This document shows, in pieces, positions 2,041 through 16,083 of a stretch of 64,000 nt of DNA (the stretch's first letter is position 1; the number at the start of each line of letters is the position of its first letter). The notes beneath the pieces are model-generated. The model saw only the letters and a list, made by a program, of their open reading frames with translations, was not told the DNA's origin and ran no database searches. The stretch lies in NCBI GenBank assembly GCA_964495685.1, contig CAZBVQ010000003.1, forward strand, positions 4,824 to 68,823. Reading direction: 5' to 3'. The position numbers were made by a program, and so were the translations under genes. The DNA comes from an uncultured Candidatus Saccharibacteria bacterium. Lineage in GTDB: Bacteria; Patescibacteriota; Minisyncoccia; Phycocordibacterales; PALSA-1337.

Positions 2041-2049
2041 TCGATTCGT

Positions 2050-2124: not shown

Positions 2125-2157
2125 AATAGTACTCAGTCATGCTGCCAAATTTCGTTG

Positions 2158-2241
2158 TGCGCAGGAGAGGACTCGAACCTCCATGCCCTAACGGGCGCTA
2201 CCACCTCAAGGTAGTGCGTCTACCAATTTCGCCACCTGCGC
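2158..2241 (-). tRNA. tRNA-Leu (anticodon GAG), long variable arm
   Basis: Reverse complement GCGCAGGTGGCGAAATTGGTAGACGCACTACCTTGAGGTGGTAGCGCCCGTTAGGGCATGGAGGTTCGAGTCCTCTCCTGCGCA. 84 nt; anticodon loop TTGAGGT. Confidence 0.85.
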
Positions 2242-2289
2242 GGGTGTGCTGCACACTATAGCGGAAAGCGATACCTTTTTCAATCTGCC

Positions 2290-2883
2290 GTGATGACATA
2301 TACTTGTAGCATGCTTTATACCCGCAAAGGAGACAGTGGTACGACCAAGGCATTCAATTCCAAGCCGGGCGTGCGTATTTCCAAAAGTTCATGTCAAACC
2401 GAGGCACTTGGTGCACTCGATGAGCTCAATTCATTCATCGGTCTCGCCAAAGTGAAGCTCGCTGATCTGTCATGGGTCGTGAATGTATCGGCGGATACTA
2501 CTCAATCACTGCCAGAAGTCATCTGGTGGGTGCAGGAATGCCTATTCATCATTCAAGCCGAGACTGCTGGTGCCGACAAGCATATAGGTGAAGACAAAGT
2601 CACGCGACTTGAATTCGTCGTCGATTGGGCTGAGCGAGAAATGCCGCCTATCAAAACCTTTTTCATTTCTGGTGGCACGGAATGTGCGGCCCTCCTCGAT
2701 ATTTCCCGTACCTTGGCACGCAAAGCGGAGCGTCGGGTGATCGCTGGTATTGAGAAAGGGGAGGTGGTCGTGGGTCCGACGACCCTGGCTTTCCTCAATC
2801 GACTTTCGTCGCTCTTCTATGCGCTGGCTCGACTAAGTAACCATAAATCTGGTATAAAGGAGGTTGCGCCGACGTATCAGTAG
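2290..2883 (+). CDS. PduO-type ATP:cob(I)alamin adenosyltransferase (MMAB-like)
   Basis: N-terminal YTRKGDSGTT...SSCQTEALGALDELNSFIGLAK matches the PduO/EutT-like corrinoid adenosyltransferase signature. The true start may be the internal Met at 2311. Confidence 0.7.
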   Translation: MMTYTCSMLYTRKGDSGTTKAFNSKPGVRISKSSCQTEALGALDELNSFIGLAKVKLADLSWVVNVSADTTQSLPEVIWWVQECLFIIQAETAGADKHIGEDKVTRLEFVVDWAEREMPPIKTFFISGGTECAALLDISRTLARKAERRVIAGIEKGEVVVGPTTLAFLNRLSSLFYALARLSNHKSGIKEVAPTYQ

Positions 2884-2902
2884 TGTCGGAGCATGCATAC
2901 AT

Positions 2903-2977
2903 GGTGGCTATAGTTTAGTGGTAAAACCTCGGTTTGTGGAGCCGAAGTTGAGGGTTCGATTCCCTCTAGCCACCCCA
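2903..2977 (+). tRNA. tRNA-His (anticodon GUG) with G-1:C73 and encoded CCA
   Basis: G(-1)GTGGCTATAGTTTAGTGGTAAAACCTCGGTTTGTGGAGCCGAAGTTGAGGGTTCGATTCCCTCTAGCCACCCCA. The extra 5' G pairing with discriminator C is the bacterial tRNA-His hallmark. Confidence 0.9.
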
Positions 2978-4561
2978 AGAAAGAATTAGGTGAGCGAAAG
3001 CGGCATTTCGTGCCTCAGCTGTAAGGTATTTCTGTAGTTCCAACCGATGATATTCAGCTTCAAGCTCTGGATAGGCTTTTTCTATTGGAACAAACCAATC
3101 ATTGGCTTTAATGCTCACTATTTTGTCTTTTATTGAAAAGTTCCAACCAAGTGCTGCAAAGATTTCTCGCTTCTTCTCCAAGGTCCCAGAATTAAAGTTT
3201 TCTCGTGCATAGCAGGCAAAGTTAAATGTCTTATCAGTAAGTTCTAACCACTTCTCGGCTCGGTTCTCAGTGTTTCTGAGGTTACTCTTTAGTTTGGTGA
3301 TTTTGTCTTTCAACCCGTCACGCTCTTTTACAAAGGTCTCGTCATCAATTAATTCTCGATAACGCATTTTGGTAAGAGCATCAATCTCTTTTTGAGTTTC
3401 GGCGACTGCTTTATGTTGCGTTTCGTAGACTTTAGTTCGGTCCTCAATCTCTTTATTATTTTCTCTGTTTAAAATCTCAAGTGCCCAGTCTTTAAACTTT
3501 GGCAGGATGGTATATCGTTCAAGTTCGATATCAACCTGATCCTCAAGTTGCTTGAGGGTGACAGGGCTTCTTTGAGTACACTTCGTCCCTTTCTTGCGCC
3601 GAGTGCAATTGTAGTAAACATATTTCTCAAAGGTGTTTGTTTTCTTAACAAACTTTATTTTCTCGCTTGCGGTATACATCGAACCACATTCTTCACAGTA
3701 AATAAGGCCAGTGTAAGCAAATTCGTGGGTTTTTGCTCTAGGTTTACCATTTCGGCCCATAAGAGCCTGGACCCGATCATACTCCTCAAGGCTAATCATG
3801 GGCTTATGGTTGCCCTTATACAGCTTTCCTGACCACTCAAACATGCCGGTGTAGAAGATATTGGTGAACATCTTATAAATCACGCTGCTAGCGAGTTCAC
3901 CGCCACCACCACGCTTTGTTTTTGCTGTTCTAAAACCCCATTTATCATTCGCGATCTTTAAAATCTGTGGAGGAGTATAGTTGCCGGTAAGCATCATGTC
4001 CCACATCTTGCGGACCAAATCAAAACGATCTTTATCCTCGATAATTATGTGCTCAAGTTTGTCATTCAAATATCCGATAGGAGCTCGGGAGGGTAGCCAA
4101 CCTCGATCAGCTTTTCCAACCATTCCACGCATACTGTTTTTCTTAAGATCAATGATGAATTGATTTGCCATTCCACTCTCAACACTAAAAAGGAGAACAT
4201 TATCATCAGGCAGATACTGACGATCAATTGTTTGAATACATTTTAAAACTCCTTGCTGCAACATCCAGCTGAGAGCTCCGCTATCAACTGGGTTTCGAGA
4301 AAGTCGATTGAGTTGCCAACAAAGAATACCGTCAGCTTCACCTCGTTGAATGCGTTTGAGCATATCATCGAAGATTGGTCGGCAATAAGGCTTCTTGGCA
4401 GATTTAGCTTCTGTCAGTACCTCTTTGATAGTGATTCCTAGGCTGTTTGCAAGTTCCTTAAGTCGGTTCACCTGATCGTCGATAGACTGAACCTGCCTGT
4501 CCTCACTTTCAGAGGATTTTCTAGCGTATATGAAGAGTGTTCTTGGTGTAGTTTGGTTCAT
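2966..4561 (-). CDS. large serine recombinase (resolvase catalytic domain + recombinase domain + zinc ribbon)
   Basis: N-terminal LFIYARKSSESEDRQVQSIDDQ (catalytic Ser) and a YCEECGSMY...C zinc ribbon. 531 aa. The stop codon overlaps the 3' acceptor stem of tRNA-His. Confidence 0.9.
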   Translation of the reverse strand: MNQTTPRTLFIYARKSSESEDRQVQSIDDQVNRLKELANSLGITIKEVLTEAKSAKKPYCRPIFDDMLKRIQRGEADGILCWQLNRLSRNPVDSGALSWMLQQGVLKCIQTIDRQYLPDDNVLLFSVESGMANQFIIDLKKNSMRGMVGKADRGWLPSRAPIGYLNDKLEHIIIEDKDRFDLVRKMWDMMLTGNYTPPQILKIANDKWGFRTAKTKRGGGGELASSVIYKMFTNIFYTGMFEWSGKLYKGNHKPMISLEEYDRVQALMGRNGKPRAKTHEFAYTGLIYCEECGSMYTASEKIKFVKKTNTFEKYVYYNCTRRKKGTKCTQRSPVTLKQLEDQVDIELERYTILPKFKDWALEILNRENNKEIEDRTKVYETQHKAVAETQKEIDALTKMRYRELIDDETFVKERDGLKDKITKLKSNLRNTENRAEKWLELTDKTFNFACYARENFNSGTLEKKREIFAALGWNFSIKDKIVSIKANDWFVPIEKAYPELEAEYHRLELQKYLTAEARNAAFAHLILSWGG

Positions 4562-4567
4562 AGTAAT

Positions 4568-5548
4568 TTATCCGGCACTGCCTGCACTTATATCCTCATC
4601 CCTAATGTTATTTAAGTAAAGAGGATTTGTGGGTTCTTCCGCTTTATTCCGCTCTATTTCGTCTAACTCCGTTTTTTCACCGTTTTTTAACGGTTGGATG
4701 TTATCAGAATTGATATCATCTCCTGACCGTTTTTCCACCGCTATTTCGGACTCAATGTTATCAAAATTGATATCATGCGTTTCCCGTAATTTACCCGTAT
4801 TTACGGGATTACTCTGATCCTGCATTTCTCCCGTACTTACAGGTGCAATATTATCCCTATTTTGCCCTAATTTTCCCTTGTTGTCAGGCCTGTGCCAGGG
4901 TGGAACCCAAGTATTGCTAGAACCCTCTGGAATAGCAACTTTCTGTGGTTTTTTGTGTACACTCATCTGGTCAGCCAGGGACTTTATTTGGTCATTTAAC
5001 TCTTTAGGAGAGTTATTATTTAGGTTAGTCAGAGTATCAATTTCATCGCTTTTTACTGAATTATCATCGGGTTTGATATCATTATTTCTTGATTTTTGAT
5101 ATCTTCCTTTCCAATTTGATAGCTTAATACGCGGCGAGTTTTCATCCAAAGATTTCCAAAAGATCGAGCTTTGAAATGCATAGAGATTGGACCGGCCAAA
5201 ACCATGTTGGCCTCTTTGGACAATAATAATTCCATGATCTTCAAGAATCTGAATAGCTTTGCTTATGCTGGTTGGATTTTTCTCACCAGTAAATTTCTGC
5301 AGGCGTTTGATACTTGGAAAAGCTCCTTGAGTTTCAGTGTTGCAGTGTCTTAAGAGGACATCCAAAACAGCACCACAAAGTCTGGGGAGCTTCGCTACAT
5401 ACCAACCATCAACATACTCGTTGTCTACAAAATAACGAGTTGGTTTATCTTTTGGGCGTAGCCGATCGAAGGGAATATCACGCAAGAGGCTTGTTGCTCT
5501 CATTCTCTTGCGTTCCTTCCACGAATTGAGGTCTTGTTTCCAGTTCAT
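4568..5548 (-). CDS. hypothetical protein with N-terminal winged-helix/HTH domain and a long disordered acidic/Asn-rich tail (island cargo; replication or regulatory protein candidate)
   Basis: 326-aa ORF. The N-terminal ~120 aa (PTRYFVDNEYVDGWYVAKLPRL...ISKAIQILEDHGIIIVQR) is HTH-like; the remainder is low-complexity. Confidence 0.5.
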   Translation of the reverse strand: MNWKQDLNSWKERKRMRATSLLRDIPFDRLRPKDKPTRYFVDNEYVDGWYVAKLPRLCGAVLDVLLRHCNTETQGAFPSIKRLQKFTGEKNPTSISKAIQILEDHGIIIVQRGQHGFGRSNLYAFQSSIFWKSLDENSPRIKLSNWKGRYQKSRNNDIKPDDNSVKSDEIDTLTNLNNNSPKELNDQIKSLADQMSVHKKPQKVAIPEGSSNTWVPPWHRPDNKGKLGQNRDNIAPVSTGEMQDQSNPVNTGKLRETHDINFDNIESEIAVEKRSGDDINSDNIQPLKNGEKTELDEIERNKAEEPTNPLYLNNIRDEDISAGSAG

Positions 5549-5762
5549 CTTGGGTAATTCTTTTGATTAATAAAGGGAGCGTAGATTCTCTATGCTTCTG
5601 AATCTTTTCAAATTGCTCTTTGGTCATTGGCCGATAGATGGCAGACATAAGCCGCACAAGTTTGATACCTTGCTCGTAGGCTTGTTCAGCACTTATTTCT
5701 TTACCGAACTCACTTCGGTAGAGTGCCTGAAACTTTGCAATGTCTGCATCGGTCAGGACCAT
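5478..5762 (-). CDS. hypothetical small protein
   Basis: 94-aa ORF between island genes. No recognisable motif. Confidence 0.35.
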   Translation of the reverse strand: MVLTDADIAKFQALYRSEFGKEISAEQAYEQGIKLVRLMSAIYRPMTKEQFEKIQKHRESTLPLLIKRITQDELETRPQFVEGTQENESNKPLA

Positions 5763-5764
5763 AG

Positions 5765-6037
5765 CTATTCCGAGTAAAGTTTGTTCTTGAGAGCCTTGAT
5801 GCTGTCAAAGAACGACCGAGCTTTGACTTTCAGTTGGTCTGAAAAATATTGATTGGCATATCTATCAATTTCTGCTTCTCGTTTGAATACGAAAAGAGCC
5901 TTGCGAGGATCGTCTCGGTCCAAGCGGATAAGCTTGTAACCCAGGCACATGAGTGCCGCCGATACTCCAAGGTCATAGGTTGTGAACACATCTGGTCCGT
6001 CAGCTTCGGGCTGGGACCAACTCCGTTTTTTAATCAT
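5765..6037 (-). CDS. small hypothetical protein (DUF5659-like)
   Basis: FTTYDLGVSAALMCLGYKLIRLDRDDPRKALFVFK resembles a small conserved family common in phage/mobile contexts. Confidence 0.45.
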   Translation of the reverse strand: MIKKRSWSQPEADGPDVFTTYDLGVSAALMCLGYKLIRLDRDDPRKALFVFKREAEIDRYANQYFSDQLKVKARSFFDSIKALKNKLYSE

Positions 6038-6163
6038 GAGTAATATTGTTAGTTAGTAATTAATGCTCTAAACAAAAAAGCCAAAGCATTACGCTCTGAC
6101 TTTATTCGTCCGAAGGAGAAAGGTGGACGGAATGATTATGGGTTTAGTGTGGGTTCAATGTGA

Positions 6164-6754
6164 TCAGGTAATCAGCTTGTAGCCTAAGCCTTTAATATTC
6201 TTGATGATGTCCTTATTTTTAGCTTTCTTGGCTGGAAGGATGCCAAGTACCTCTTTAATATTTCTGATTACAAAAGTGAGGTTGCGTTTAGTAGTTTTAG
6301 AAACAGATTCTCCTAGGATGTCAGTGTAGGTAACTTGATGATTCTTTGTAGTAACGAGTTTGAGAAGAGTATAGAATTCCTGACTCTTTGGGTTAAAGAT
6401 AGCCTCGATTGTATTCAACCGGACCGCAGCAGTGACCTTATCGATCGAGAGGGTATTGCTTCCAATTTTGATTGTAATGACGTCAGTATCAGCTTTATTT
6501 TCATTTAAATAATTTGCAAAGGTACTTATCACCCAGAAACTAACGGCTTTGCCGATAATATTTAGATCACCGATGAGGCCTTCTTGTTCAAGTTTTTTCA
6601 AAATAAGAATCTGTTCTTTCACCGACAAAGTAGGCTGGTCCTTGAGCTGTAACTTCAAAATACCAGCAGGACTTATCAGAGCTCTTTCATGGATTAAAAC
6701 CTTGATGAATTGTATCTTCTGGACCGGCGTCATGGTAATAGTAATTTGATACAA
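6164..6754 (-). CDS. hypothetical protein (AT-rich island cargo)
   Basis: 196-aa ORF. Lys/Ile-rich, low GC. No motif recognised. Confidence 0.45.
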   Translation of the reverse strand: MYQITITMTPVQKIQFIKVLIHERALISPAGILKLQLKDQPTLSVKEQILILKKLEQEGLIGDLNIIGKAVSFWVISTFANYLNENKADTDVITIKIGSNTLSIDKVTAAVRLNTIEAIFNPKSQEFYTLLKLVTTKNHQVTYTDILGESVSKTTKRNLTFVIRNIKEVLGILPAKKAKNKDIIKNIKGLGYKLIT

Positions 6755-6798
6755 ATCTACAACGAATTTGGCTTTTCTCCAATAGGGTGTTTACTGGT

Positions 6799-6828
6799 TT
6801 GACAGTCTATACCCCTAGGGGGTATTAT
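6799..6828 (+). promoter_or_regulatory. sigma70-like promoter (TTGACA-N18-TATTAT) with an embedded CsoR operator ATACCCCTAGGGGGTAT (6809-6825)
   Basis: A GC-rich pseudo-palindrome of the TACCC-N-GGGTA type sits in the promoter spacer directly upstream of csoR-copA. This matches the B. subtilis-type CsoR box. Confidence 0.65.
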
Positions 6829-6830
6829 GT

Positions 6831-7103
6831 ATGTATATGAGACAAGATATTAAAACAAAAGCTATTCGCCGATTAAAAATTGTTGAGGGGCAGATTAGAG
6901 GACTTCAGAAGATGGTAGAAGACGAGAAGTATTGCATCGACATTATCACTCAGGCATCTGCTATTAAAGAGGCGCTTACTGGAATTGAGGGCCTGGTTCT
7001 TGAAAATCATCTTTCTACGCATGTTGTTCACCAAATGAAGCATGGTAGCGAAAAGAAAGCTGTCGATGAGATTCTTAAGGTTTATAAGCTAAAGCGCAAA
7101 TAA
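6831..7103 (+). CDS. csoR: CsoR/RcnR-family copper-sensing transcriptional repressor
   Basis: RLKIVEGQIRGLQKMVEDEKYCIDIITQ...HLSTHVVHQM carries the Cys-His-Cys metal-ligand pattern of the DUF156/CsoR family. Confidence 0.85.
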   Translation: MYMRQDIKTKAIRRLKIVEGQIRGLQKMVEDEKYCIDIITQASAIKEALTGIEGLVLENHLSTHVVHQMKHGSEKKAVDEILKVYKLKRK

Positions 7104-7108
7104 AAAAT

Positions 7109-9436
7109 ATGAATCATCCCACTAAAACATATAGAGTAAAAGGAATGCATTGCGCTTCTTGTGCTGGCATTATTGAGAAGACCTTCAAGAAGACTGAGGG
7201 AGTCCATTCTGCTGAAGTAAACTATGGGACCGAAAAAGCGAAGGTTGTCTTTGATGAATCAAAAACAAGTGCGCAGGAGCTTTCAAAGAAAATAGAGCCA
7301 CTTGGCTACTCCTTGGCTCTGGACCAGGAAATGTCACATGACCATGGTAGTCAATCAGCAGAAGCGATGGGTATGTCGGCAGATGAACATGCGGCACATC
7401 TGGGACTCAATCAGTCTAAGAAAGAAAAGCTCGCCGAAGTTGCTGATATGCGAACAAAATTACTTTCTGCTATTCCTCTCGCAATTTTCGCTGCACTCGT
7501 TATGGGATGGGATATTCTCGCTCAATACAAGGCGGTCCCTGAAATGAGTTATACGATCAAAGAATTTATCCACCACCTTCTTCCGATACTAGCTACATAC
7601 ATACTGTTTGTTGTCGGTAAACCATACCTCATGGGATTTTACAGATTCCTTCGATACGGCAAGGCAAACATGGATACGCTTATCGGTATTGGAACCACTG
7701 CCGCATTTTTATATAGCTTTGCTGTCACTGCTTTTGAAGAAGCTCTACGTCCATTTATAAACGTGGACTATCAATACTATGATGTCACGATTGTGGTCAT
7801 TACTTTTATAGCCCTTGGCAAATATCTTGAAGCTCGATCGAAAATAAAGACGGGTGATGCCATAGAAAAACTCCTAAATCTTCAAGCTAAAACAGCTTTG
7901 GTCATTCGTGATGGAAAGGAAGTAGAAATTTCAGTGAATGAGGTGAAGCACGGCGACCTTATTATCGTTAAGCCGGGCGCAAAGATTCCTGTAGACGGTG
8001 TTATTACTGAAGGTTCCTCATTTATCGATGAGTCCATGGTTACCGGAGAACCGATGCCTGCTCAGAAGAAAATCGGAGACAGTGTCGTATCCGGAACCAT
8101 AAACACAAGCGGTTCATTTACTTTCAAGGCCACCAAGGTTGGGTCCGAAACGCTTCTTGCTCAGATCATCAAGATGGTTGAAGATGCTCAAGGCAGCAAG
8201 GCCCCGATTCAAGCACTAGCAGATAAGATATCAGCAATCTTCGTGCCTATAGTTTTAGTAATTTCATTTCTCACTCTTGGCGCATGGCTTATCTTTGGCT
8301 CACAGTACCTAGGATTCTCCCAAGCTCTCTCATTTGGTCTGGTTTCATTTGTCGGTATTCTCGTGATCGCATGTCCCTGTGCTCTTGGTCTTGCAACACC
8401 TACGGCCATTATCGTAGGAGTCGGTAAGGGGGCTAAGGAAGGCATACTTATCAAAGATGCGGCAACTCTGGAGAAGCTCCATAAGGTAAATACTGTTGTT
8501 GTTGATAAAACAGGGACTATCACCAAAGGAAAACCAACTCTTGTTGATATACAAAATCTTTCTGATTTAAAAGATGAGGAATTGGTATCAATTCTCGCTT
8601 CACTTGAGAAAAAATCAGAACATCCAATTGCTCATGCAATTGTAAATTACGCACAAGAGAAAAACATTTCCACATCAGATATTTCAAATTTTGAGGGCAT
8701 ACAAGGCAAAGGTCTAAAGGGAGTAGTGAAAGGTACTGAATACTTTGTCGGCAACGCTAAGCTCGTTAGTGATCTTAAGGTTTCCTTTGACGCAACAAAA
8801 CTTAATGAATTTACTTCCCAAGGTAAAACACCAGTTATCCTTGCTACTAAAGAAAAGGTCCTCGGCTTTGTCATGGTGGCTGATGAAATTAAAGCAGAGT
8901 CGGTCGAGGCAGTAAAAAATCTTCATGCCCTGGGTATAAAAGTGGTTATGCTCACTGGTGATGATGAAAAGGCTGCCAAGTACATTGCCTCTCTTGTGGG
9001 AATTGATGATGTTGTCGCCCACGTTCTGCCACAGGATAAGCTCGAAAAAATAAAAGAGCTACAGTCACAAGGTCGAGTGGTTGCCATGGCAGGTGATGGC
9101 GTGAACGACGCTCCAGCGCTTGCTCAAGCGGATGTAGGTATTGCCATGGGGACTGGAACAGATGTGGCGATTGAGTCGGCTGGTATAACACTTCTCGGCG
9201 GAGATATCTCTAAGCTCGTAAAAGCTATCAAGCTCTCGAAGATCACTATGCGTGGGATTAAGCAGAATCTATTCTGGGCGTTTATCTATAACATCGTTGG
9301 TATACCGCTTGCAGCAGGAGCCCTATATCCAGTCTTCGGTTGGCTTTTAAATCCCGTCTTTGCTGGATTTGCCATGGCCATGTCTTCGGTATCGGTTGTA
9401 TCAAATTCACTTCGCATTAAAGCCAAAAAACTATAA
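7109..9436 (+). CDS. copA: Cu(I)-translocating P1B-type ATPase
   Basis: N-terminal HMA domain GMHCASCAG, CPC motif (ACPCALG), DKTGTIT phosphorylation site, GDGVNDAPAL hinge. 775 aa. Confidence 0.95.
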   Translation: MNHPTKTYRVKGMHCASCAGIIEKTFKKTEGVHSAEVNYGTEKAKVVFDESKTSAQELSKKIEPLGYSLALDQEMSHDHGSQSAEAMGMSADEHAAHLGLNQSKKEKLAEVADMRTKLLSAIPLAIFAALVMGWDILAQYKAVPEMSYTIKEFIHHLLPILATYILFVVGKPYLMGFYRFLRYGKANMDTLIGIGTTAAFLYSFAVTAFEEALRPFINVDYQYYDVTIVVITFIALGKYLEARSKIKTGDAIEKLLNLQAKTALVIRDGKEVEISVNEVKHGDLIIVKPGAKIPVDGVITEGSSFIDESMVTGEPMPAQKKIGDSVVSGTINTSGSFTFKATKVGSETLLAQIIKMVEDAQGSKAPIQALADKISAIFVPIVLVISFLTLGAWLIFGSQYLGFSQALSFGLVSFVGILVIACPCALGLATPTAIIVGVGKGAKEGILIKDAATLEKLHKVNTVVVDKTGTITKGKPTLVDIQNLSDLKDEELVSILASLEKKSEHPIAHAIVNYAQEKNISTSDISNFEGIQGKGLKGVVKGTEYFVGNAKLVSDLKVSFDATKLNEFTSQGKTPVILATKEKVLGFVMVADEIKAESVEAVKNLHALGIKVVMLTGDDEKAAKYIASLVGIDDVVAHVLPQDKLEKIKELQSQGRVVAMAGDGVNDAPALAQADVGIAMGTGTDVAIESAGITLLGGDISKLVKAIKLSKITMRGIKQNLFWAFIYNIVGIPLAAGALYPVFGWLLNPVFAGFAMAMSSVSVVSNSLRIKAKKL

Positions 9437-10053
9437 TGAAAAAACTCCTCTCATTACTAATAATCACAAGTGTCCTAGTAATAGGGGTGTTTGGTTTTAC
9501 CTCGATGAATCATGGGACCAATCACACTACCGGTTGTATTGCCTCAGCCGTAGACAATACGCCATGTCCGGAAAACATCGCAGCAATGTCGGTCCACCAT
9601 ATACAGGCATTCGTTTCATTCTTCAGCGTGATCCCGTCAATTCCGTTTATCTTTCTGCTCGCATTTCTTTTGGCAGTATTTCTCAGCATAGGATTCGTTT
9701 ATATAAAACGACAGGATTCGCTCTTAGCTAATCTTGCATTTTGGCGAATTCAGCACGATCCTGAACGTGCCCTCACTCGCCCAAGTGAAATTACTCGCTG
9801 GCTTTCTCTATTTGAAAACAGTCCTTCGATGCATAGAATTTTCATTATCAATTCTAATCTCATAAATCTATGCAAACAAAAAAGTCTAAGGAAAATAAAA
9901 AACATAAAACTATCGATCCAGAAGTGGCATTCGATCTTGTCTGCGGAATGGAGCTTGATGCAGACGGCATTAAGGCAACTGCAGACTACAAAGGTAAGAC
10001 CTATTACTTTTGTGCTATCCACTGCAAGAATCACTTTACAGCCGATCCTGTGA
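9436..10053 (+). CDS. membrane protein. The N-terminal ~110 aa are credible (signal/TM helices); the 3' half overlaps the YHS ORF in another frame and is probably a spurious extension or a frameshift.
   Basis: N-terminus MKKLLSLLIITSVLVIGVFG...IPSIPFIFLLAFLLAVFLSIGF is membrane-like. The C-terminal portion is compositionally random and overlaps 9870-10070. Confidence 0.3.
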   Translation: MKKLLSLLIITSVLVIGVFGFTSMNHGTNHTTGCIASAVDNTPCPENIAAMSVHHIQAFVSFFSVIPSIPFIFLLAFLLAVFLSIGFVYIKRQDSLLANLAFWRIQHDPERALTRPSEITRWLSLFENSPSMHRIFIINSNLINLCKQKSLRKIKNIKLSIQKWHSILSAEWSLMQTALRQLQTTKVRPITFVLSTARITLQPIL

Positions 10054-10070
10054 AGTATGCCGGAGAGTAA
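9870..10070 (+). CDS. YHS-domain (TRASH-like) metal-binding protein
   Basis: DPVCGM-like (DLVCGM)...TYYFCAIHCKNHFTADP matches the YHS motif found next to copper ATPases. Confidence 0.7.
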   Translation: MQTKKSKENKKHKTIDPEVAFDLVCGMELDADGIKATADYKGKTYYFCAIHCKNHFTADPVKYAGE

Positions 10071-10092
10071 CTTATTAATCTAACTACAAAAT

Positions 10093-10734
10093 ATGAACAA
10101 CCAAAACAACAAAATATTATATGGAATCGGCGGAATTGTTATCGGAATTCTCCTTGTCTCAGTGCTCACTCCAATGTTTCGATATGGTGGATACGGAATG
10201 ATGAACTGGAGAAGTAACTCCGTATCGGACCAGAGAGTGAGTGGAAACACTCAGGTGGCCGGTACAATCGACAAGCACTTCATCGAGCAGATGATCCCTC
10301 ACCATGATGGAGCTATCGCTATGGCAAATCTTGCACTCCAGAAAGCTAAGCGTCCGGAGATTAAAACCTTGGCTACGGCTATCATTGCAGCTCAGACAAC
10401 GGAGATTCAAAGTATGAACGGCTGGTATCAGGACTGGTTCGGAAGTACTGTTCCGAAGGTAAGTACCGGAATGATGGGTGGAGGCATGATGTCACAGAGC
10501 GGAATGCACATGGGCGGACAGGAAGATATGACTGCACTAGAAAATGCATCTGATTTTGACGAGGCATTTATCGAAGAGATGATTCCTCATCATCAGTTGG
10601 CGATCATGATGGCAAATATGCTTCAGTCAGGGACCAACCGACCTGAGATGCAGCAGCTCGCAAAGAACATCATCTCATCTCAATCAAAAGAAATTCAGCA
10701 AATGCAGGCTTGGTATACCCAGTGGTACAAATAA
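10093..10734 (+). CDS. DUF305-family protein (two repeats of the MIPHHxxAIxMA motif), copper-resistance associated
   Basis: QMIPHHDGAIAMANLAL... and EMIPHHQLAIMMANMLQ repeats, with an N-terminal TM anchor. Confidence 0.8.
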   Translation: MNNQNNKILYGIGGIVIGILLVSVLTPMFRYGGYGMMNWRSNSVSDQRVSGNTQVAGTIDKHFIEQMIPHHDGAIAMANLALQKAKRPEIKTLATAIIAAQTTEIQSMNGWYQDWFGSTVPKVSTGMMGGGMMSQSGMHMGGQEDMTALENASDFDEAFIEEMIPHHQLAIMMANMLQSGTNRPEMQQLAKNIISSQSKEIQQMQAWYTQWYK

Positions 10735-10766
10735 ACTTATTAAAAAATAATTAAACATAAAAATAT

Positions 10767-10988
10767 ATGAAACTATCAAAAGTAATGCATGTAGGAAGTG
10801 TTATCACAGGTTTTGTTGGAGTAATAGTATTTATAGGAACACTCATCGGCGGTGGCGACAATCTAGTGTTTGGAATTACAAAAATGGATGCATTAGCGTG
10901 TTCTGCGATTCTTATCCTTATCGCCACATGGCTTCAGATCGCAACCATCCATCACATGATGCTTGAGAAAAAGGGAGAGATTGTGTAA
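10767..10988 (+). CDS. small membrane protein
   Basis: 73-aa ORF with two hydrophobic helices. Confidence 0.4.
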   Translation: MKLSKVMHVGSVITGFVGVIVFIGTLIGGGDNLVFGITKMDALACSAILILIATWLQIATIHHMMLEKKGEIV

Positions 10989-11009
10989 TCAAGAGAAATA
11001 TTATCAATC

Positions 11010-12029
11010 ATGAAAACACTAACCTTCCACGTACATGGCATGCACTGCAACGCTTGTGTGCTCATGACAGAAAGCGAGCTTGGAGACTTGCCTAATATCA
11101 CTCACGTTAAATCGAGCCTTAAGAATCATTCAGTAGAAGTTACCGGAGACTTTGGAGATAAGACACAGGAACAAATTGCTGAAGAACTTACTGTTCCACT
11201 GAAGCCTCATGGCTACACAGTCTCAGTAGAAAAACAACAGCACAATGCTAAATGGGGAGACTTCAAGATTGCAGTACCTATAGCACTCGGCTTTGCGGTG
11301 CTCTTTGTGGTGCTACAGAAAATGGGAATAGTAAATCTGGTCAGTGCTGGCAATGTAACCTACGGCACAGCATTTGTGATCGGCATCATTGCGTCACTTT
11401 CAACCTGCATGGCGGTCGTCGGCGGGCTGGTCCTCTCGATGTCTGCAACGTTTGCCAAAGAAGGTGACAAGATAAAACCTCAACTCATGTTCCATGGGGG
11501 CCGTATAGCCTCATTCTTTATTCTTGGTGGAGTGATAGGTGCAATAGGATCGGCGTTTACGCTCAACACCTCGGCAACATTTATCCTGAGCCTGATTATT
11601 GGCATCGTCATGCTCATTCTCGGTATTAATCTTCTCGATACATTCCACTGGGCCAAGAAACTTCAGCCGTCCATGCCGAAGTTCATTGCCAAGCATGCGC
11701 ATGGCGTTTCTAAATTCAATCACACGCTCACTCCACTCCTTGTAGGTGTCGCAACATTCTTCTTGCCGTGCGGATTCACTCAATCAATGCAGTTATATAC
11801 ACTTAGCACAGGAAGCTTTATCACCGGAGGTCTCACCATGCTGGCTTTCGCACTGGGTACACTGCCGGTCCTTGCACTCATTAGCTTCAGCTCGTTCAGT
11901 ATTCAAAAAAGTTCAAAGGCGGGAGTCTTCTTCAAGACAGCAGGATTGATCGTCATCATGTTTGCGCTCTTCAACCTCATTAATAGCTTGGTCGTGATTG
12001 GGGTTATACCACCAGTCTTTAATTTCTAG
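11010..12029 (+). CDS. HMA-domain (GMHCNAC) protein fused to a multi-helix membrane domain (DsbD/CcdA- or TauE-like)
   Basis: N-terminal heavy-metal-associated fold with an MxCxxC-type motif, followed by 6+ TM helices. Located in the copper cassette. Confidence 0.65.
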   Translation: MKTLTFHVHGMHCNACVLMTESELGDLPNITHVKSSLKNHSVEVTGDFGDKTQEQIAEELTVPLKPHGYTVSVEKQQHNAKWGDFKIAVPIALGFAVLFVVLQKMGIVNLVSAGNVTYGTAFVIGIIASLSTCMAVVGGLVLSMSATFAKEGDKIKPQLMFHGGRIASFFILGGVIGAIGSAFTLNTSATFILSLIIGIVMLILGINLLDTFHWAKKLQPSMPKFIAKHAHGVSKFNHTLTPLLVGVATFFLPCGFTQSMQLYTLSTGSFITGGLTMLAFALGTLPVLALISFSSFSIQKSSKAGVFFKTAGLIVIMFALFNLINSLVVIGVIPPVFNF

Positions 12030-12042
12030 TATAATTCCAATT

Positions 12043-12432
12043 ATGAAAGCAACTATTATTTCAGTCATTGTGGCAGTGGTCCTCATCGGGGGAGCTTTTA
12101 TGCTTACCAGAAGTGGTGGTGATACTGCACAAGTAGCAAATGCAAACAACGTTACTGTTGTAGACGGAAAACAAATCATAGAGATAAGTGCCAAAGGCGG
12201 TTATCAGCCACGAAAGAGTATTGCTAAGGCAGGTATCCCAACTGTCATCCGGTTCAACACAAAAGGAACCTTTGATTGCTCATCATCGGTCCGCATTCCA
12301 AGTATAGGTATAAGCAAATCGCTTCCACAGACAGGATCAACAGATATTGATATTGGAACTCAGAAAGTAGCAACCCTTCAGGGAACTTGCGGAATGGGAA
12401 TGTATCCTTTTGAGGTAGAGTTTCAGAGCTAG
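12043..12432 (+). CDS. cupredoxin-like (PF13473-type) copper-binding protein, TM-anchored
   Basis: QIIEISAKGGYQP...IRFNTKGTFDCSSS...TCGMGMYPFEVEF resembles single-domain cupredoxin_1 proteins of cop operons. Start chosen at the MKATII ATG. Confidence 0.55.
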   Translation: MKATIISVIVAVVLIGGAFMLTRSGGDTAQVANANNVTVVDGKQIIEISAKGGYQPRKSIAKAGIPTVIRFNTKGTFDCSSSVRIPSIGISKSLPQTGSTDIDIGTQKVATLQGTCGMGMYPFEVEFQS

Positions 12433-12439
12433 TTTTTGA

Positions 12440-13342
12440 TTAAGAAGACTTAGGATGAAACGAGTGTAAATTCTCAATGTGCTGAGAGGGTGTGATATCT
12501 GCGGTTTGGCAAACATATGAAAGCTTCCCAAGTATCAAATGAAGATTTTCTTCTGACAGTTTTGCGTCGGTATGTTTTTGAATGCATCCCACAATTTCTT
12601 CTGAGTGGACAACATTCTCAATTGACTCTGTCTTGAATTCACATGAGTCAGTAAATACAACTATGCTTCGGAAAGCATTCTCTGGAATAGACGGCATAAG
12701 TAACTTGAGAGACATAATATGGGACCAGTTTTGTCGTATAGGATTCTGAAATTGGAATTTGTTCTTTCCGCCAGGCAATGACTGAGTCCAATTATCTTGG
12801 TCCTTGTTGCCAAATATCCATCCTTTGTAATCCTTACTCTCGATTACGAAGATACCGAACTTTGATACAACCAAGTGGTCAATCTGAGACGATCCGTTGT
12901 GGTCCGAAGGGATGGTTAGGTTATTGAAGATAAAATAGTCTTTATAGCTCAAACCCTCAGCGAGGATATGTGCAATTTCTTGTTCTCCGTCAGTGAGTCC
13001 ATCCATATAGCATTTGCAACCATGCTTCTCACTGTTCACAGCTGCAACTTGGTCCTTACTTGCACCAGCTGGGATGTATAGATTATTAGAGATCGGACTT
13101 TTAGACCGGTTTTTAATTTTCCTGATTACCCAAACAATACCGCCAAGTATCAGACCCCAGACAAGTATCTTTCCTAGTATTCCTATAAAATTGCCAGATG
13201 TGATTGATGATATGGACCCGAGAAGAATAAATGCAGCTCCGATAATAAAGATCCCTTTTAATGGTTCGAAGGGTTGGCTGTAATTCCCGTAACGTCGTCG
13301 TCGGTAATAATATGGTTTTCGATAATTGCGGTAGTAGCTCAT
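12440..13342 (-). CDS. NERD (nuclease-related domain) protein with N-terminal TM segment
   Basis: SQIDHLVVSKFGIFVIESKDYKGWIFG is the NERD core motif. An N-terminal hydrophobic helix follows a Tyr/Arg-rich tail. Confidence 0.65.
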   Translation of the reverse strand: MSYYRNYRKPYYYRRRRYGNYSQPFEPLKGIFIIGAAFILLGSISSITSGNFIGILGKILVWGLILGGIVWVIRKIKNRSKSPISNNLYIPAGASKDQVAAVNSEKHGCKCYMDGLTDGEQEIAHILAEGLSYKDYFIFNNLTIPSDHNGSSQIDHLVVSKFGIFVIESKDYKGWIFGNKDQDNWTQSLPGGKNKFQFQNPIRQNWSHIMSLKLLMPSIPENAFRSIVVFTDSCEFKTESIENVVHSEEIVGCIQKHTDAKLSEENLHLILGKLSYVCQTADITPSQHIENLHSFHPKSS

Positions 13343-13433
13343 TGATTATTCTTGTTAAGACAATTATAACCGAAATCAGACAAATAGACTTAAATCAGAA
13401 ACCTTTATATAAAAGCAAAAATATGGTAAAACA

Positions 13434-13799
13434 ATGGAAAATATCATGACTCTAATAAAACAATTAATATTACAAACAATTGAACAAAATGATGGTCATT
13501 GTGACTGGAAAATAATTAAACCGAAAGTTGGTGCATATCACTTCGCACATAAGATCTCAATTCCAACGGATAAACAGATAACACATCAAGCTTATTTACT
13601 TGAGCAGGCTGGAGCTGTAGAGCGGATTGTAGAAATGCCAGTAGGTATTTTCTACAGAATTACTCCATGGGGCCACGCACTACTTGGGCCGTTACATAAA
13701 AGGATTGGTTATTTTCTCCTCTATAAAAAGAACAACCTCTTTGCTCTTAGTGCCTTAGTTATATCAATCATCTCTTTAATTTTTTCAATACTTAAATGA
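13434..13799 (+). CDS. hypothetical protein
   Basis: 121-aa ORF divergent from the NERD gene. C-terminal hydrophobic helix. Confidence 0.4.
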   Translation: MENIMTLIKQLILQTIEQNDGHCDWKIIKPKVGAYHFAHKISIPTDKQITHQAYLLEQAGAVERIVEMPVGIFYRITPWGHALLGPLHKRIGYFLLYKKNNLFALSALVISIISLIFSILK

Positions 13800-14986
13800 G
13801 GAGAGTAATTATCATACATCGCTGGGAGGGAGGATCACATGACGACTGGCGTCCATGGCTTAAATCTGAACTTGAAAAGATTGGGTATGAAGTACTTGTA
13901 CCTGATATGCCGGATACCAATACACCGGTGATTGAAAAATGGGTTTCAAAAATAAAAGAGGTTGTTGGTGAACCAGACGGAGACACTTATTTCATAGGGC
14001 ATTCAATTGGCTGCCAAGCCATTCTTAGATATTTGCAAACTGTAGATACTCCAGTAGGCGGAGCGGTGTTTGTGGCAGGTTGGTTTAATCTCAGTAACTT
14101 GGAATCTGATGAAGTAAAAGAAATTGCTAAGCCATGGATAGAAATGCCGATGGATATTGATAAGTTAAGGACTATCCTACACCGATCTACATTACTCATT
14201 TCTGACAATGATCCTTATGGTTACTTCGAGGAAAATAAGCAGAAGTTTGGAATGTTAAAGTCCGAAATGAAAATTATCCACAATGGAGGACACCTTACGG
14301 CAGAAGATGGGTATTCTGAATTTCCGCAGATTATCTCTGAACTGAAAAGCATTGTAATAAAGCAATATTTCCAAATCACAACTGACAGAATGTTTACAGC
14401 TCTGGAATCCTTTCATCTATGGAAAAAGATGAATATGCTAATGAATGTAAATGAAGTTGGTCCAGAAGTTGCACAGAAGAATGTCGATATTTTTAGGAAG
14501 CACTGGGATTTTTTCCATCCGGTCATGGCTGGGGCTTATAAAATGTTTATTATTGATCTTTCAATCTTTTTCGATGCTGAAAAATATGAAGACACGTTTT
14601 CGCTGCATAAGCTTGTTGAGTCTATAAAGGAAAATATCAGTGAATCCGAGTATAAGGACCTGCTTCAAAAAATAAAAGATATAAAGAAAAAACATGGACC
14701 AGCAATTAACCTCCTTCTTACCTTAAGAAATAGTGATGTTGCTCATCAGAAGATGGAGAAGAAAAAGCGCCTTATCATCTATAAAGAGATTGAGGATTTA
14801 TTTATTGGTGTTCAAGAAATCCTCAATCTTTTGAGCAAATACTTTAATGGAGCCTATACCATGTGGGATCATGTAGGTAAAAATGTCGAGCATGGGACCG
14901 AGTGGGTAATGGAAAATTTGGAAAGGGGAGAAAAGGATAGATTAAAAGAGATCGAGGAAAAGTATAAAGTTGATCTGGGTGCTTAA
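13796..14986 (+). CDS. YdeN/RBBP9-family serine hydrolase (aa 1-190) fused to a ~200-aa C-terminal HEPN-like domain
   Basis: The N-terminus aligns well to B. subtilis YdeN (IIIHRWEGGSHDDWRPWL..., nucleophile in GHSIG, ...IIHNGGHL). The C-terminal extension contains R311-x5-H317 (LRNSDVAHQK) in a predicted helical context. Confidence 0.6.
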   Translation: MRRVIIIHRWEGGSHDDWRPWLKSELEKIGYEVLVPDMPDTNTPVIEKWVSKIKEVVGEPDGDTYFIGHSIGCQAILRYLQTVDTPVGGAVFVAGWFNLSNLESDEVKEIAKPWIEMPMDIDKLRTILHRSTLLISDNDPYGYFEENKQKFGMLKSEMKIIHNGGHLTAEDGYSEFPQIISELKSIVIKQYFQITTDRMFTALESFHLWKKMNMLMNVNEVGPEVAQKNVDIFRKHWDFFHPVMAGAYKMFIIDLSIFFDAEKYEDTFSLHKLVESIKENISESEYKDLLQKIKDIKKKHGPAINLLLTLRNSDVAHQKMEKKKRLIIYKEIEDLFIGVQEILNLLSKYFNGAYTMWDHVGKNVEHGTEWVMENLERGEKDRLKEIEEKYKVDLGA

Positions 14987-15105
14987 GCGAAACCAATAGA
15001 TAAGCGTTCTTTTTCGACCTTTTTTGCCCTATTTCACCCTATTTGCCCTAACGCTAGGCCAGATTAGGCCGAAAAGAGCCGAAAAGAGCCAAAATTACCC
15101 AAGAA

Positions 15106-15196
15106 CTGCTATACTTTGCATGTCAGGAATGTAGATCGTCGCATCATTCCTTTTCTCAAATATAGTTCTAACTTCCTCTACGACGGCACCCCACGC
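15106..15196 (+). repeat. ~90-bp direct repeat, copy A (contains hairpin AGGAATGtagatcgtcgcatCATTCCT)
   Basis: About 85% identical to copy B at 15802-15890. The two copies flank ORF 15236-15799. Confidence 0.7.
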
Positions 15197-15235
15197 TTAG
15201 AATAGGGCTTCATTAGGAGGCGGTGGTATTTTCTA

Positions 15236-15799
15236 TTGTGTTATAATTTCATTATGAAAAATTTTTCCACACTTATTTTCCTTTTGACTCTTATAATGTT
15301 GGGTATTTTTGGTTACTTGAAAATATTTAACGAAGCGGGAAACTCATTTAACTATTGGTACATACTAATCTTTGCGGTTGCGTATTTTGTTATTTGGGCA
15401 TGTGTACCTTTGGCTGAAGGGTTGCAAAGGAGGGGACGAATTAGAATGTTCGAAGACATTTCCCACAAATATGGTCTGAAACATGAATTCACTAAACTCC
15501 GATACCTCAATTCTTATGGCGAATTCAACAAACTCTCTGGTACATATAAAAATCATTCCGTTCTTATCAGGGATGTACATGATAAGCCGAAGGCGTGGCA
15601 TGGGGCGACAAGTCAAATACCCATAAAGGGAGTCGCGCTATCTTTTGGTCCACAGAAGACCCTGTACGCAATAGACGGTGAAGAAAAGCGTTTTCCACAG
15701 GAGCTTAATAATCTCAAACAGATATTTGATCCAAAATCAGGATATGCCAGCAAAGAACAGATAGTTACTGCACTTGAAGGATCAGCTTTTTTGTCCTAA
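15236..15799 (+). CDS. hypothetical membrane protein (2 N-terminal TM helices + cytoplasmic domain)
   Basis: 187-aa ORF, AT-rich. Flanked by the 90-bp direct repeats. Confidence 0.5.
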   Translation: MCYNFIMKNFSTLIFLLTLIMLGIFGYLKIFNEAGNSFNYWYILIFAVAYFVIWACVPLAEGLQRRGRIRMFEDISHKYGLKHEFTKLRYLNSYGEFNKLSGTYKNHSVLIRDVHDKPKAWHGATSQIPIKGVALSFGPQKTLYAIDGEEKRFPQELNNLKQIFDPKSGYASKEQIVTALEGSAFLS

Positions 15800-15801
15800 A
15801 A

Positions 15802-15890
15802 CTGCCTACTTTGCATATTAGGAATGTAAATCGTCGCGTCATTCCTTCTCTCGAAAATAGTTCTAACATCCTCTACGGCGGCACCCCACG
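15802..15890 (+). repeat. ~90-bp direct repeat, copy B
   Basis: ctgcctactttgcatattaggaatgtaaatcgtcgcgtcattccttctctcgaaaatagttctaacatcctctacggcggcaccccacg matches copy A. Confidence 0.7.
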
Positions 15891-16083
15891 TGAGAGAATT
15901 AGTTCAAAAAAATCATGGCTTGGCCCTATTTCATTGACCCTCAGAAAACAAAGATGGATCTAAAAAATTCATCCAAATTTTTCAGGTATTTTCTAGTGCC
16001 TCTTTTAGTAATAATACTGGCGACCACGGTAATAAGAATGATGACTATGTAGACGGGGTAGGGGAATCAGGTTGTCGCACCCA

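Follow-up and report, generated by a model that had tools for sequence, protein, structure and literature searches.

A predicted AbiU2-family HEPN domain fused to a YdeN-type serine hydrolase on an integrative element of a Candidatus Saccharibacteria genome

The locus and its boundaries

The analysed DNA (the window) is a stretch of 64,000 nucleotides from the genome of an uncultured Candidatus Saccharibacteria bacterium. It contains a ~12-kb integrative element, or island, at a tRNA-His gene; copper-resistance genes and the gene of a serine recombinase are part of it. The gene that we describe here belongs to its cargo and lies at its far (attR-side) end. The features of the locus are as follows (positions are those of the window).

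2904..2977, plus strand: tRNA-His, the left boundary of the island; GC content falls directly after it
2966..4561, minus strand: island-encoded large serine recombinase (integrase), phrog_95 integrase, 2.1e-61
12440..13342, minus strand: NERD-domain protein of 300 aa, membrane-anchored, encoded divergently next to the fusion gene, PF08378, 3e-31
13434..13799, plus strand: orf121, 121 aa, with a C-terminal transmembrane helix (residues 99-121) and a 4-bp ATGA overlap with the start of the fusion gene
13796..14986, plus strand: hydrolase-HEPN fusion gene, 396 aa, identified by the ORF, two Pfam domains and an AF2 model
13796..14365, plus strand: YdeN/RBBP9-type alpha/beta serine hydrolase domain, residues 1-190, identified by PF06821, YdeN 1uxo and Foldseek
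14003..14005, plus strand: Ser70 codon, nucleophile in GHSIG; Ser in this column in 83/84 homologous domains
14210..14212, plus strand: Asp139 codon, predicted triad acid (SDNDP); column D in 67/84 and E in 15/84, aligned with DDP of RBBP9
14291..14293, plus strand: His166 codon, predicted triad base (GGH); His in this column in 81/84
14357..14974, plus strand: predicted AbiU2-family HEPN domain, residues ~188-393, all-helical, identified by PF18734 and our own family HMM
14726..14746, plus strand: R311-N312-x4-H317, predicted HEPN catalytic motif, identified by column conservation
15112..15195, no strand: first copy (copy 1) of an 84-nt direct repeat, at which all related contigs cease to be syntenic
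15236..15799, plus strand: 187-aa protein with two transmembrane helices (TM187), between the direct repeats; missing from related contigs
15807..15890, no strand: second copy (copy 2) of the 84-nt direct repeat, 89% identical; weak similarity to the tRNA-His 3' end

The genes of the NERD protein, orf121 and the fusion protein lie inside the island, as the original prediction had it: they belong to a low-GC stretch of the element (0.37-0.44 vs ~0.49). Since synteny with related contigs ends at copy 1 of the direct repeat, this copy is probably the right junction of the island. The gapped similarity between the repeat end and the 3' end of tRNA-His is at about the 99th percentile of the null distribution, which is suggestive and no more, and a search for exact copies of at least 13 bp of the tRNA-His region elsewhere found none. 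We considered the repeat as a structured RNA and rejected this (z-scores from -0.5 to +0.7). An Rfam scan of positions 1-22000 returned tRNAs only. A promoter and terminator scan of positions 12300-16000 gave fewer matches than shuffled sequences and is uninformative.

Architecture of the fusion protein

The ORF and all other sequence-level statements of the original prediction are correct to the base, including the positions of Ser70 within GHSIG (codon 14003) and of R311 and H317 within RNSDVAH (codons 14726-14746). An identical layout of hydrolase and HEPN in one ORF is found in five further contigs (L002-L005 and L012). As these contigs come from different samples, the fusion is genuine and is not an artefact. 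Nor is it unique to this assembly; a second fusion (P0013, see below) exists as well.

The AF2 model of the whole protein has a pLDDT of 92.3 and a pTM of 0.85. An unbroken helix (residues 177-216) spans the junction and connects the last helix of the hydrolase to the first helix of the HEPN domain. The C-terminal 200 residues had been described as helical and rich in Lys and Glu. They are all-helical in the models, and Lys and Glu account for 23% of them.

The hydrolase domain

The similarity of residues 1-190 to Bacillus subtilis YdeN, noticed earlier, is fully borne out. PF06821 (Ser_hydrolase) matches residues 4-184 with an E-value of 7.3e-23 and 81.8 bits (cut-off 22), and the match covers positions 1-171 of the 172 profile positions, i.e., the whole domain. 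The sequence of YdeN (1uxo) is matched over residues 2-187 (4.5e-17). The AF2 model of this half (pLDDT ~97) is matched by Foldseek to 1uxo with an E-value of 1.5e-12, TM 0.91 and rmsd 1.8 Å, and to RBBP9 with TM 0.85. The domain is a predicted active serine hydrolase with an intact triad Ser70/Asp139/His166. It has the fold, the length, the Ser-Asp-His triad and the GHSxG motif in common with YdeN and with human RBBP9 (2qs9, 7oex). The latter is the sole characterised relative, an aromatic aminopeptidase that requires a free alpha-amine (PMC8866121).

YdeN and RBBP9 are single-domain proteins, whereas the Patescibacteria/DPANN clade to which the query hydrolase belongs is mostly multidomain. 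More than 20 unrelated fusion partners occur in this clade, among them cupin, NUDIX, NYN, PLD, Vsr-like, HhH-GPD, GNAT, APH, SOD, glycosyltransferase, UvrB, Ham1, Fmt, LeuRS and tRNA-binding domains; LeuRS, Fmt, UvrB and SOD are housekeeping enzymes. By BLASTP the query hydrolase shares 59-68% identity with the hydrolase part of hydrolase-cupin proteins. A separate observation concerns leucyl-tRNA synthetase: LeuRS of two distant lineages contains a hydrolase of the same clade as an insertion that adjoins the CP1 editing domain. A literature search on LeuRS with a hydrolase domain gave nothing relevant.

The HEPN domain

The profile PF18734 (HEPN_AbiU2) matches the full protein with 28.6 bits and its C-terminal half with 30.5 bits against a gathering cut-off of 26.8. 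This is a marginal score, just over the threshold, and relatives of the query reach 67 bits. Almost all relatives recovered by the query's profile (98 of 100) match PF18734, with a best E-value of 5e-24.

The motif R-x4-6-H, which had suggested a HEPN domain in the original prediction, is uninformative by itself: it turns up in 52% of shuffled versions of the C-terminal domain, and the domain has a second occurrence at residue 234. The column conservation is a different matter. The R311/H317 motif is invariant in nine close relatives; among 100 representatives with 20-48% identity, no residue except H317 is invariant, and R311 is retained in at least 90%. In 121 of 123 sequences the corresponding position has a motif of the form R[NDH..]x4H. 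The polar N312 directly after R311 fits the usual HEPN motif, in which R is followed by N, D or H. The assignment therefore relies on the Pfam match and on column conservation, not on the short motif.

Fold searches neither confirmed nor refuted a four-helix HEPN fold. Foldseek with the model of the C-terminal half (pLDDT 84) gave no significant match in PDB and BFVD (best E-value ~0.9), and profile searches (A1, A4) of PDB sequences gave only spurious matches to coiled-coil and designed proteins. H317 is located in the one low-confidence (low-pLDDT) loop of the model. The HEPN prediction is borne out by the profile, the relatives and the two conserved residues. On this sequence evidence the C-terminal half is an AbiU2-family HEPN domain and a predicted RNase. 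To our knowledge, RNase activity has been reported for no AbiU2-family protein.

The family is small and patchy, with 213 representatives in 1.84 billion proteins; some copies are frameshifted, and most relatives are solo HEPN proteins. Such rarity, patchiness and frameshifted copies are typical of conflict genes.

Repeated linkage of HEPN and hydrolase

The second fusion, P0013, has a HEPN half that is 47-49% identical to that of the query. Its hydrolase belongs to a different subclade: it is 27% identical to the query hydrolase and 61-71% identical to the hydrolases of hydrolase-NUDIX proteins. Both fusions have the same junction geometry. In addition, a Saccharibacteria contig (L008) encodes separate HEPN and hydrolase genes on one strand, 14 bp apart. 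The query, P0013 and L008 occupy separate places in the HEPN tree, and the hydrolase triad is retained in all three. The low identity of the two fused hydrolases, their membership of different subclades (cupin vs NUDIX) and the separate tree positions of their HEPN domains indicate independent origins: judging by these comparisons, the fusion arose at least twice, and the linkage with a hydrolase three separate times if the adjacency in L008 is included. The chance of at least three hydrolase links among 17 HEPN lineages is P ~7e-6 to 6e-3. Three separate links between this HEPN subfamily and YdeN-type hydrolases argue that the hydrolase is not an accidental passenger.

In a close HEPN relative, P0008, the hydrolase is replaced by another N-terminal domain with a GSG...DID signature. 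We tried this domain as an MNT nucleotidyltransferase; the match to NTP_transf_5 is sub-threshold (15 bits, E-value 0.017) and no PDB relative was found, so the identification is kept as a lead only.

Genomic context and database searches

The solo relatives of the HEPN domain are found in several kinds of surroundings. One (L013) is the last gene of an operon that consists of a type IIG R-M system, a wHTH-TIR protein and the HEPN protein. Others are adjacent to a MORC-like ATPase or belong to a cluster with MazG, a Schlafen-helicase and HNH. One is located beside a holin-like protein and an amidase, which has the look of a prophage lysis cassette, judged by sequence only, and a GIY-YIG gene is near another. 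As solo relatives lie in defence islands, a defence or abortive-infection role of the fusion is a reasonable reading.

Searches with the locus itself gave little. At E<=1 neither the fusion protein nor its C-terminal half nor orf121 fits any model of PADLOC. PHROGs gave no match to the fusion, and NCBIfam gave weak sub-threshold matches only. A scan of viral contigs with the HEPN profile found nothing, and tblastn against phage and plasmid records matched the hydrolase half alone, with no HEPN relative. Literature searches for HEPN with serine hydrolase and for HEPN with Saccharibacteria returned nothing relevant.

Proposed function and alternatives

We lean slightly towards the following reading: a single protein with an intact hydrolase and a HEPN domain is a defence or addiction RNase with a functionally coupled hydrolase module. 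The product of the ORF is one soluble protein with two domains. Its HEPN domain would most likely be a metal-independent endoribonuclease that probably acts as a dimer, as in other HEPN RNases. Once triggered, it would cut cellular or phage RNA, and the cutting would result in abortive-infection-type defence or in stabilisation of the element. The hydrolase would be a coupled accessory module that could act as a gate for the RNase or process the RNase substrate beforehand. The fusion alone is weak evidence for such coupling, since the hydrolase clade joins so many unrelated partners.

The neighbouring genes could be thought to belong to the same system. The NERD protein (PF08378: 108.6 bits vs the cut-off of 22.1, residues 118-231; two predicted transmembrane helices within residues 26-77) is indeed the divergent membrane-anchored neighbour that had been described, and the small ORF next to the fusion gene is likewise real, overlapping its start codon by 4 bp. 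A two-gene defence or Abi system of a membrane nuclease or sensor, for example, and a cytoplasmic RNase would agree with the adjacent divergent genes and their shared 91-bp intergenic region, with the domain-level resemblance to the NERD modules of PglW and MAD6 (defence kinases, in which the module is N-terminal) and of MkoA, and with retention of the arrangement in L002, L004, L005 and L012. However, those contigs are close kin (fusion proteins 93-99% and NERD proteins 84-99.7% identical), so the conserved gene order tells little. No NERD gene is found beside any of the ~16 other HEPN lineages (the P0013 contig is too short to show one) or at loci of orf121 homologues, and the matches to defence families are far under their cut-offs; in PADLOC, NERD gave PglW/MkoA and TM187 gave PycTM as weak domain-level matches only. 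We consider such a system quite unlikely, and the pair proposed originally is not supported, the NERD adjacency being confined to one close lineage. Somewhat less doubtful, yet still improbable, is that orf121 is an antitoxin or repressor of a hydrolase-HEPN toxin and that the two stabilise the integrative element rather than fight phages. The ATGA overlap implies co-translation, a small upstream gene is in the classic position of an antitoxin, the genes stand at the end of a mobile element, and the orf121 homologue of L028 overlaps its own downstream gene likewise; the N-terminal part of orf121 is winged-helix-like by eye and a C-terminal transmembrane anchor is predicted. On the other hand, homologues of orf121 (56-97% identical) precede mutually unrelated genes elsewhere: a 459-aa unknown protein, a 447-aa Zn-ribbon/HTH protein, a weak Mrr-like protein and a 78-aa transmembrane protein. 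The 459-aa protein, that of L028, contains LRHQNAH and was tried as a HEPN protein and rejected (hhalign probability 0.15%, no Pfam match). Moreover, orf121 has no Pfam, PHROG or PADLOC match, its homologues are absent from all solo HEPN loci and from L008, and no antitoxin-like partner is conserved. The NERD gene and orf121 share the island with the fusion gene as its neighbours, but neither is a demonstrated component of the system.

The remaining alternatives concern the hydrolase. It could be a passenger, i.e., a housekeeping YdeN-type enzyme that fuses readily in the streamlined genomes of Patescibacteria and DPANN, with two independent halves and a HEPN domain that works like its solo kin. 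The many unrelated partners of the clade and the prevalence of solo HEPN relatives fit this explanation, which we hold to be unlikely in view of two independent fusions of the same geometry and one adjacency in a rare family, the triad retained in all three linked members, and the pTM and unbroken junction helix of the model, which suggest a fixed two-domain unit. Far less room is left for a housekeeping enzyme of RNA processing or quality control, in which hydrolase and HEPN would serve the normal tRNA and rRNA metabolism of Saccharibacteria. The clade is tied to translation enzymes (within LeuRS, fused to tRNA_bind and Fmt), and some HEPN proteins function in RNA maturation (PMC3710099); yet the family is patchy, the gene is on a low-GC integrative island, some relatives are frameshifted, and solo relatives have defence-island or prophage settings. 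The insertion at LeuRS CP1, the fusions to tRNA-binding domains and Met-tRNA formyltransferase, and the activity of RBBP9 suggest another possibility, to which we give a low probability: the clade may be an aminoacyl-tRNA-directed esterase and the fusion a bifunctional toxin or defence effector directed against tRNA. Recognition or deacylation of charged tRNA may precede its cutting, or binding of an aminoacyl ligand by the hydrolase may gate the RNase.

Comparison with known systems

PF18734 is named for the Lactococcus lactis abortive-infection gene abiU2. Anantharaman et al. 2013 (PMC3710099) placed AbiU2 among the HEPN families and noted that it has the conserved motif. The query resembles it in a score above the gathering cut-off and in the retained R-x4-6-H; its relatives occur in R-M operons (L013), as reported for AbiU2 (PMC3710099). 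The contexts of AbiU2 given in that paper are Sel1-repeat and R-M operon only, and the word 'hydrolase' is absent from it. The query differs in the N-terminal serine hydrolase joined to its HEPN domain, in its host, a Patescibacteria epibiont, and in its membership of a distinct small subfamily (20-48% identity to other representatives).

The HEPN-MNT type II/VII toxin-antitoxin systems are similar in that a HEPN RNase is restrained by an associated enzyme domain. Unlike them, the fusion and its neighbours have no MNT or nucleotidyltransferase gene or domain, and the query HEPN is of the AbiU2 family, not classic HEPN (PF05168). A serine hydrolase is incapable of the AMPylation chemistry of MNT.

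A C-terminal HEPN domain after another functional domain is also known from AbiA (RT-HEPN), AbiJ with its NTDs, and RloC and PrrC (ATPase-HEPN anticodon nucleases), all single-chain defence proteins with a variable enzymatic or sensor domain at the N-terminus. Mobile elements or defence islands carry the genes of such proteins, and an alpha/beta serine hydrolase is absent from the partners listed for them (PMC3710099; PMC9226505). In contrast to AbiA, RloC and PrrC, the query fusion has no ATPase, RT or DNA-binding module. Rst_Hydrolase-3TM and further candidate systems of PADLOC that contain a hydrolase share with the locus a hydrolase that adjoins small transmembrane proteins on a mobile element, whereas the fusion, its C-terminal half and orf121 fit none of the PADLOC models. 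The original suggestion that the architecture is undescribed agrees with our literature searches, which found no account of the combination. We regard it as a variant of the Abi-type HEPN effectors with a new domain architecture.

Significance

In many immune and toxin systems, such as Cas13, Csm6, Abi and HEPN-MNT, the effector is a HEPN RNase, and the module attached to HEPN varies and sets the trigger and specificity. An alpha/beta serine hydrolase in the place of this module was not found in the published surveys that we searched. Its independent acquisition at least twice argues that the hydrolase-HEPN pairing does something. If the reading as a tRNA-targeting effector is true, the fusion would represent a mechanism described for no HEPN system.

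Very little is known about the defence repertoire and the phages of Saccharibacteria, which live as ultra-small epibionts. The presence of the gene on a copper-resistance element shows how accessory conflict genes travel in reduced genomes. The hydrolase inserted in LeuRS offers a testable clue to what the YdeN/RBBP9 family does biochemically, and it may matter more broadly.

The hydrolase-HEPN fusion

The gene under study is the following:

13796-14986, + strand: hydrolase-HEPN fusion, 396 aa

The protein has no transmembrane (TM) helices by hydropathy. Its residues 4-184 match the Pfam family Ser_hydrolase (PF06821, 7.3e-23), and sequence comparison relates it to B. subtilis YdeN (4.5e-17; structure 1uxo) and human RBBP9 (1e-8). 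We obtained an AlphaFold model from an alignment of 41 sequences (pLDDT 92.3, pTM 0.85); superposition of its hydrolase half on 1uxo gives TM 0.91 and rmsd 1.8 A. The columns of the catalytic triad are conserved across 84 aligned homologous domains: 83 have Ser in the Ser70 column, 82 have D or E in that of Asp139, and 81 have His in that of His166. Given these columns, the fold and the profile match, the hydrolase half is predicted to be catalytically competent. In the model an unbroken helix (residues 177-216) runs between the two halves. The original prediction placed the nucleophile Ser70 in a GHSIG motif (codon 14003) and the R311-H317 dyad in RNSDVAH (codons 14726-14746); both match the sequence exactly.

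The nearest hydrolase relatives (P0002-P0012, P0017, and P0025) are proteins of 270-278 aa that end in a small cupin-like domain, so that the HEPN domain takes the position of the cupin in the fusion. The cupin matches of these relatives are sub-threshold in our scan, and a Cupin_2 match is precomputed for P0017.

Assignment of the C-terminal half

The motif R-x4-6-H occurs in 52% of shuffles of the HEPN domain, and there is a second copy at residue 234; thus the bare motif is no evidence for HEPN. The Pfam family HEPN_AbiU2 (PF18734) scores 28.6 bits against the full protein and 30.5 bits against its C-terminal 200 aa, which is marginal with respect to the gathering cut-off of 26.8. Therefore, membership was checked across the whole family. 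A HEPN profile built from nine relatives recovered 213 proteins from 1.84 billion representatives (E<=1e-3). When 100 of the recovered relatives were scanned singly, 98 matched PF18734 (best E 5e-24). H317 is the sole invariant residue in an alignment of these 100 sequences, which have 20-48% identity to the fusion; R311 is conserved in at least 90% of them, and 121 of 123 HEPN representatives have R-[N/D/H]-x4-H at the corresponding position. AbiU2 was defined by Anantharaman et al. 2013 as a HEPN family that retains the motif (PMC3710099).

The HEPN-domain model is all-helical (pLDDT 84), with H317 in its sole low-confidence loop. Foldseek comparison of this model with PDB and BFVD gave no significant match, and profile searches of PDB sequences with the HEPN half gave only spurious ones. 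The initial HEPN assignment thus stands as to family and conserved residues and lacks a significant fold match in PDB and BFVD. By profile and motif conservation, the C-terminal half belongs to HEPN_AbiU2, and its HEPN fold is only predicted.

Recurrence of the hydrolase-HEPN linkage

It had been considered that the fusion might be unique to this assembly and lie over a contig join. The fusion is not unique: five contigs from other samples carry the same 396-aa ORF with products 93-99% identical to ours. Among them is a Candidatus Saccharibacteria MAG, from which the organism was identified. A second fusion (P0013, 394 aa) has an overall identity of 38%; the HEPN halves of the two proteins are 47-49% identical and the hydrolase halves only 27%. 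In BLASTP the hydrolase of our fusion shares 59-68% identity with that of hydrolase-cupin proteins 278 aa long, and the hydrolase of P0013 is 61-71% identical to hydrolase-NUDIX proteins. Since the hydrolase halves come from different subclades and the HEPN halves are alike, the HEPN domain joined two hydrolase subclades independently.

A third linkage is found in another Saccharibacteria MAG (L008), where 14 bp separate the end of a solo HEPN gene from an independent YdeN-like hydrolase gene (190 aa), both on one strand; a trypsin-like peptidase gene comes next. A neighbour-joining tree of HEPN domains places the three hydrolase-linked HEPNs at three points among solo and otherwise fused members. 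The probability of at least three hydrolase links in 17 HEPN lineages by chance is roughly estimated as 7e-6 to 6e-3, under our assumption of one to ten such hydrolase genes per genome of ~900 genes.

The island and the neighbouring genes

The GC content falls from ~0.5 to 0.37-0.44 between ~3 and 16 kb of the window. This stretch includes the following features:

2904-2977: tRNA-His, at which the low-GC stretch starts
2966-4561: large serine recombinase (phrog_95, 2e-61); the ORF end overlaps the last 12 nt of tRNA-His
after tRNA-His, with the recombinase: replication-initiator-like (RepO-like) protein
next: CsoR, CopA, YHS protein, DUF305, HMA-membrane protein, cupredoxin
12440-13342, - strand: NERD gene, 300 aa (PF08378, 3e-31), two TM helices by hydropathy
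13434-13799, + strand: orf121, 121 aa, one C-terminal TM helix; 4-bp overlap (ATGA) with the fusion start
15112-15195 and 15807-15890: 84-nt direct repeat, 89% identical, bracketing a 187-aa TM gene

The copper genes were called by reading translations, with Pfam support for cupredoxin only, via a homologue in L002. The last four island genes are NERD, orf121, the fusion, and the gene of the 187-aa protein (two TM helices by hydropathy). Synteny with all related contigs ends at 15191; they share one repeat copy and diverge straight after '...GGCACCC'. The synteny stop and the repeat at 15112-15195 make the fusion gene the terminal cargo of the element. Judged from these sequence features, 2904-15195 is a ~12-kb low-GC copper-resistance integrative element at tRNA-His of a Saccharibacteria genome. 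The repeat end weakly resembles the tRNA-His 3' end plus 12 nt (~99th percentile of the null), and the repeats may be two attR-like junctions from tandem insertions. Structured RNA was rejected as an explanation of the repeat.

The proposed defence or abortive-infection pair of NERD and the fusion was not supported: NERD sits next to the fusion only in the near-identical lineage, and none of the other HEPN loci carries it. Both NERD and orf121 failed a co-occurrence test. Homologues of orf121 fall into seven clusters (56-97% identical), and the genes that follow its homologues in L024, L025, L026, and L028 are mutually unrelated: a 459-aa protein of unknown function (4-bp overlap), a 447-aa Zn-ribbon/HTH protein, a weak Mrr-like nuclease, and a 78-aa TM protein. 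One homologue lies in another metal-resistance cluster; the L026 homologue is near CsoR/MauE/DUF305. Thus orf121 looks like a conserved backbone gene of the island, next to a slot for variable cargo, rather than a dedicated partner. Its N-terminal part appears winged-helix-like by eye.

Solo and otherwise fused HEPN relatives

The majority of the HEPN family consists of solo proteins, 190-250 aa long. Rare fusions (P0008, P0093, P0100, P0102, P0142, and P0112) involve ASCH (N- or C-terminal), NUDIX, SET, or an unknown 260-aa N-terminal region. In P0008 the N-terminal domain is 140 aa long, contains GSG...DID, matches NTP_transf_5 weakly, and is possibly MNT-like. The contexts of solo HEPN genes are as follows:

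L013, 524-4509: Eco57I/MmeI-type IIG R-M (898 aa), then wHTH-TIR (216 aa), then AbiU2-type HEPN (211 aa)
L015: MORC-like GHKL ATPase
L018: MazG-like, Schlafen-type helicase with S24 peptidase, HNH; HEPN frameshifted
L007, 4644-6594: holin-like, N-acetylmuramoyl-L-alanine amidase-like, and a 1058-aa protein directly before HEPN
L001: GIY-YIG

The L013 genes form an operon with gaps of 2 nt, a candidate composite defence system. In L007 the holin-like and amidase-like genes, called from sequence alone, look like a prophage lysis cassette; the HEPN gene lies where an accessory ('moron') gene of a prophage usually sits. The L007 contig (597 kb) is labelled Gammaproteobacteria, which looks doubtful given its gene set.

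Frameshifts split the HEPN gene in L009 (2127-2775), L023 (1032-1350), and L018 (4938-5589). The break is the same in the independent assemblies L009 and L023 and is therefore a real mutation, not a read error. The frameshifted copies fit a costly gene in decay. Taken together, the contexts and frameshifts show the pattern of gene families involved in conflict or defence, and the contexts match the R-M association reported for AbiU2 (PMC3710099).

Possible function

We propose that the HEPN domain would serve as an RNase effector in abortive infection, defence or addiction, with the hydrolase as an accessory coupled to it. The hydrolase clade is fused to many different partners, which weakens any single inference on the accessory role. 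One subset of these fusions is tRNA-centred: LeuRS insertion, tRNA_bind, and Met-tRNA formyltransferase (YidD+Fmt), as seen in L030, P0255, P0281 (Nanoarchaeia), P0057, and P0282. In one Azambacteria protein and one Nanoarchaeia protein, a YdeN-type hydrolase lies inside LeuRS beside the CP1 editing domain; the first of these is:

L030 (Ca. Azambacteria GCA_016234725.1), 181-3639, - strand: LeuRS with tRNA-synt_1 (12-223), NUDIX (244-360), editing (378-507), Ser_hydrolase (524-688), and Anticodon_1 (1002-1114)

In P0255 the hydrolase (247-413) precedes the editing domain. We found no literature on a hydrolase domain inserted in LeuRS. These fusions hint that the clade may act on aminoacyl-tRNA-like esters. 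RBBP9 cleaves N-terminal residues with a free alpha-amine (PMC8866121), and this specificity together with the tRNA-linked fusions suggests that the substrates are aminoacyl esters and that the fusion is a bifunctional toxin directed at tRNA; we regard this reading as unlikely.

No description of a serine-hydrolase-HEPN architecture was found in the literature, no PADLOC model matched the fusion, and no phage or plasmid record contained it. It is already known that HEPN effectors can carry variable N-terminal modules; what is new here is a serine hydrolase as the module.
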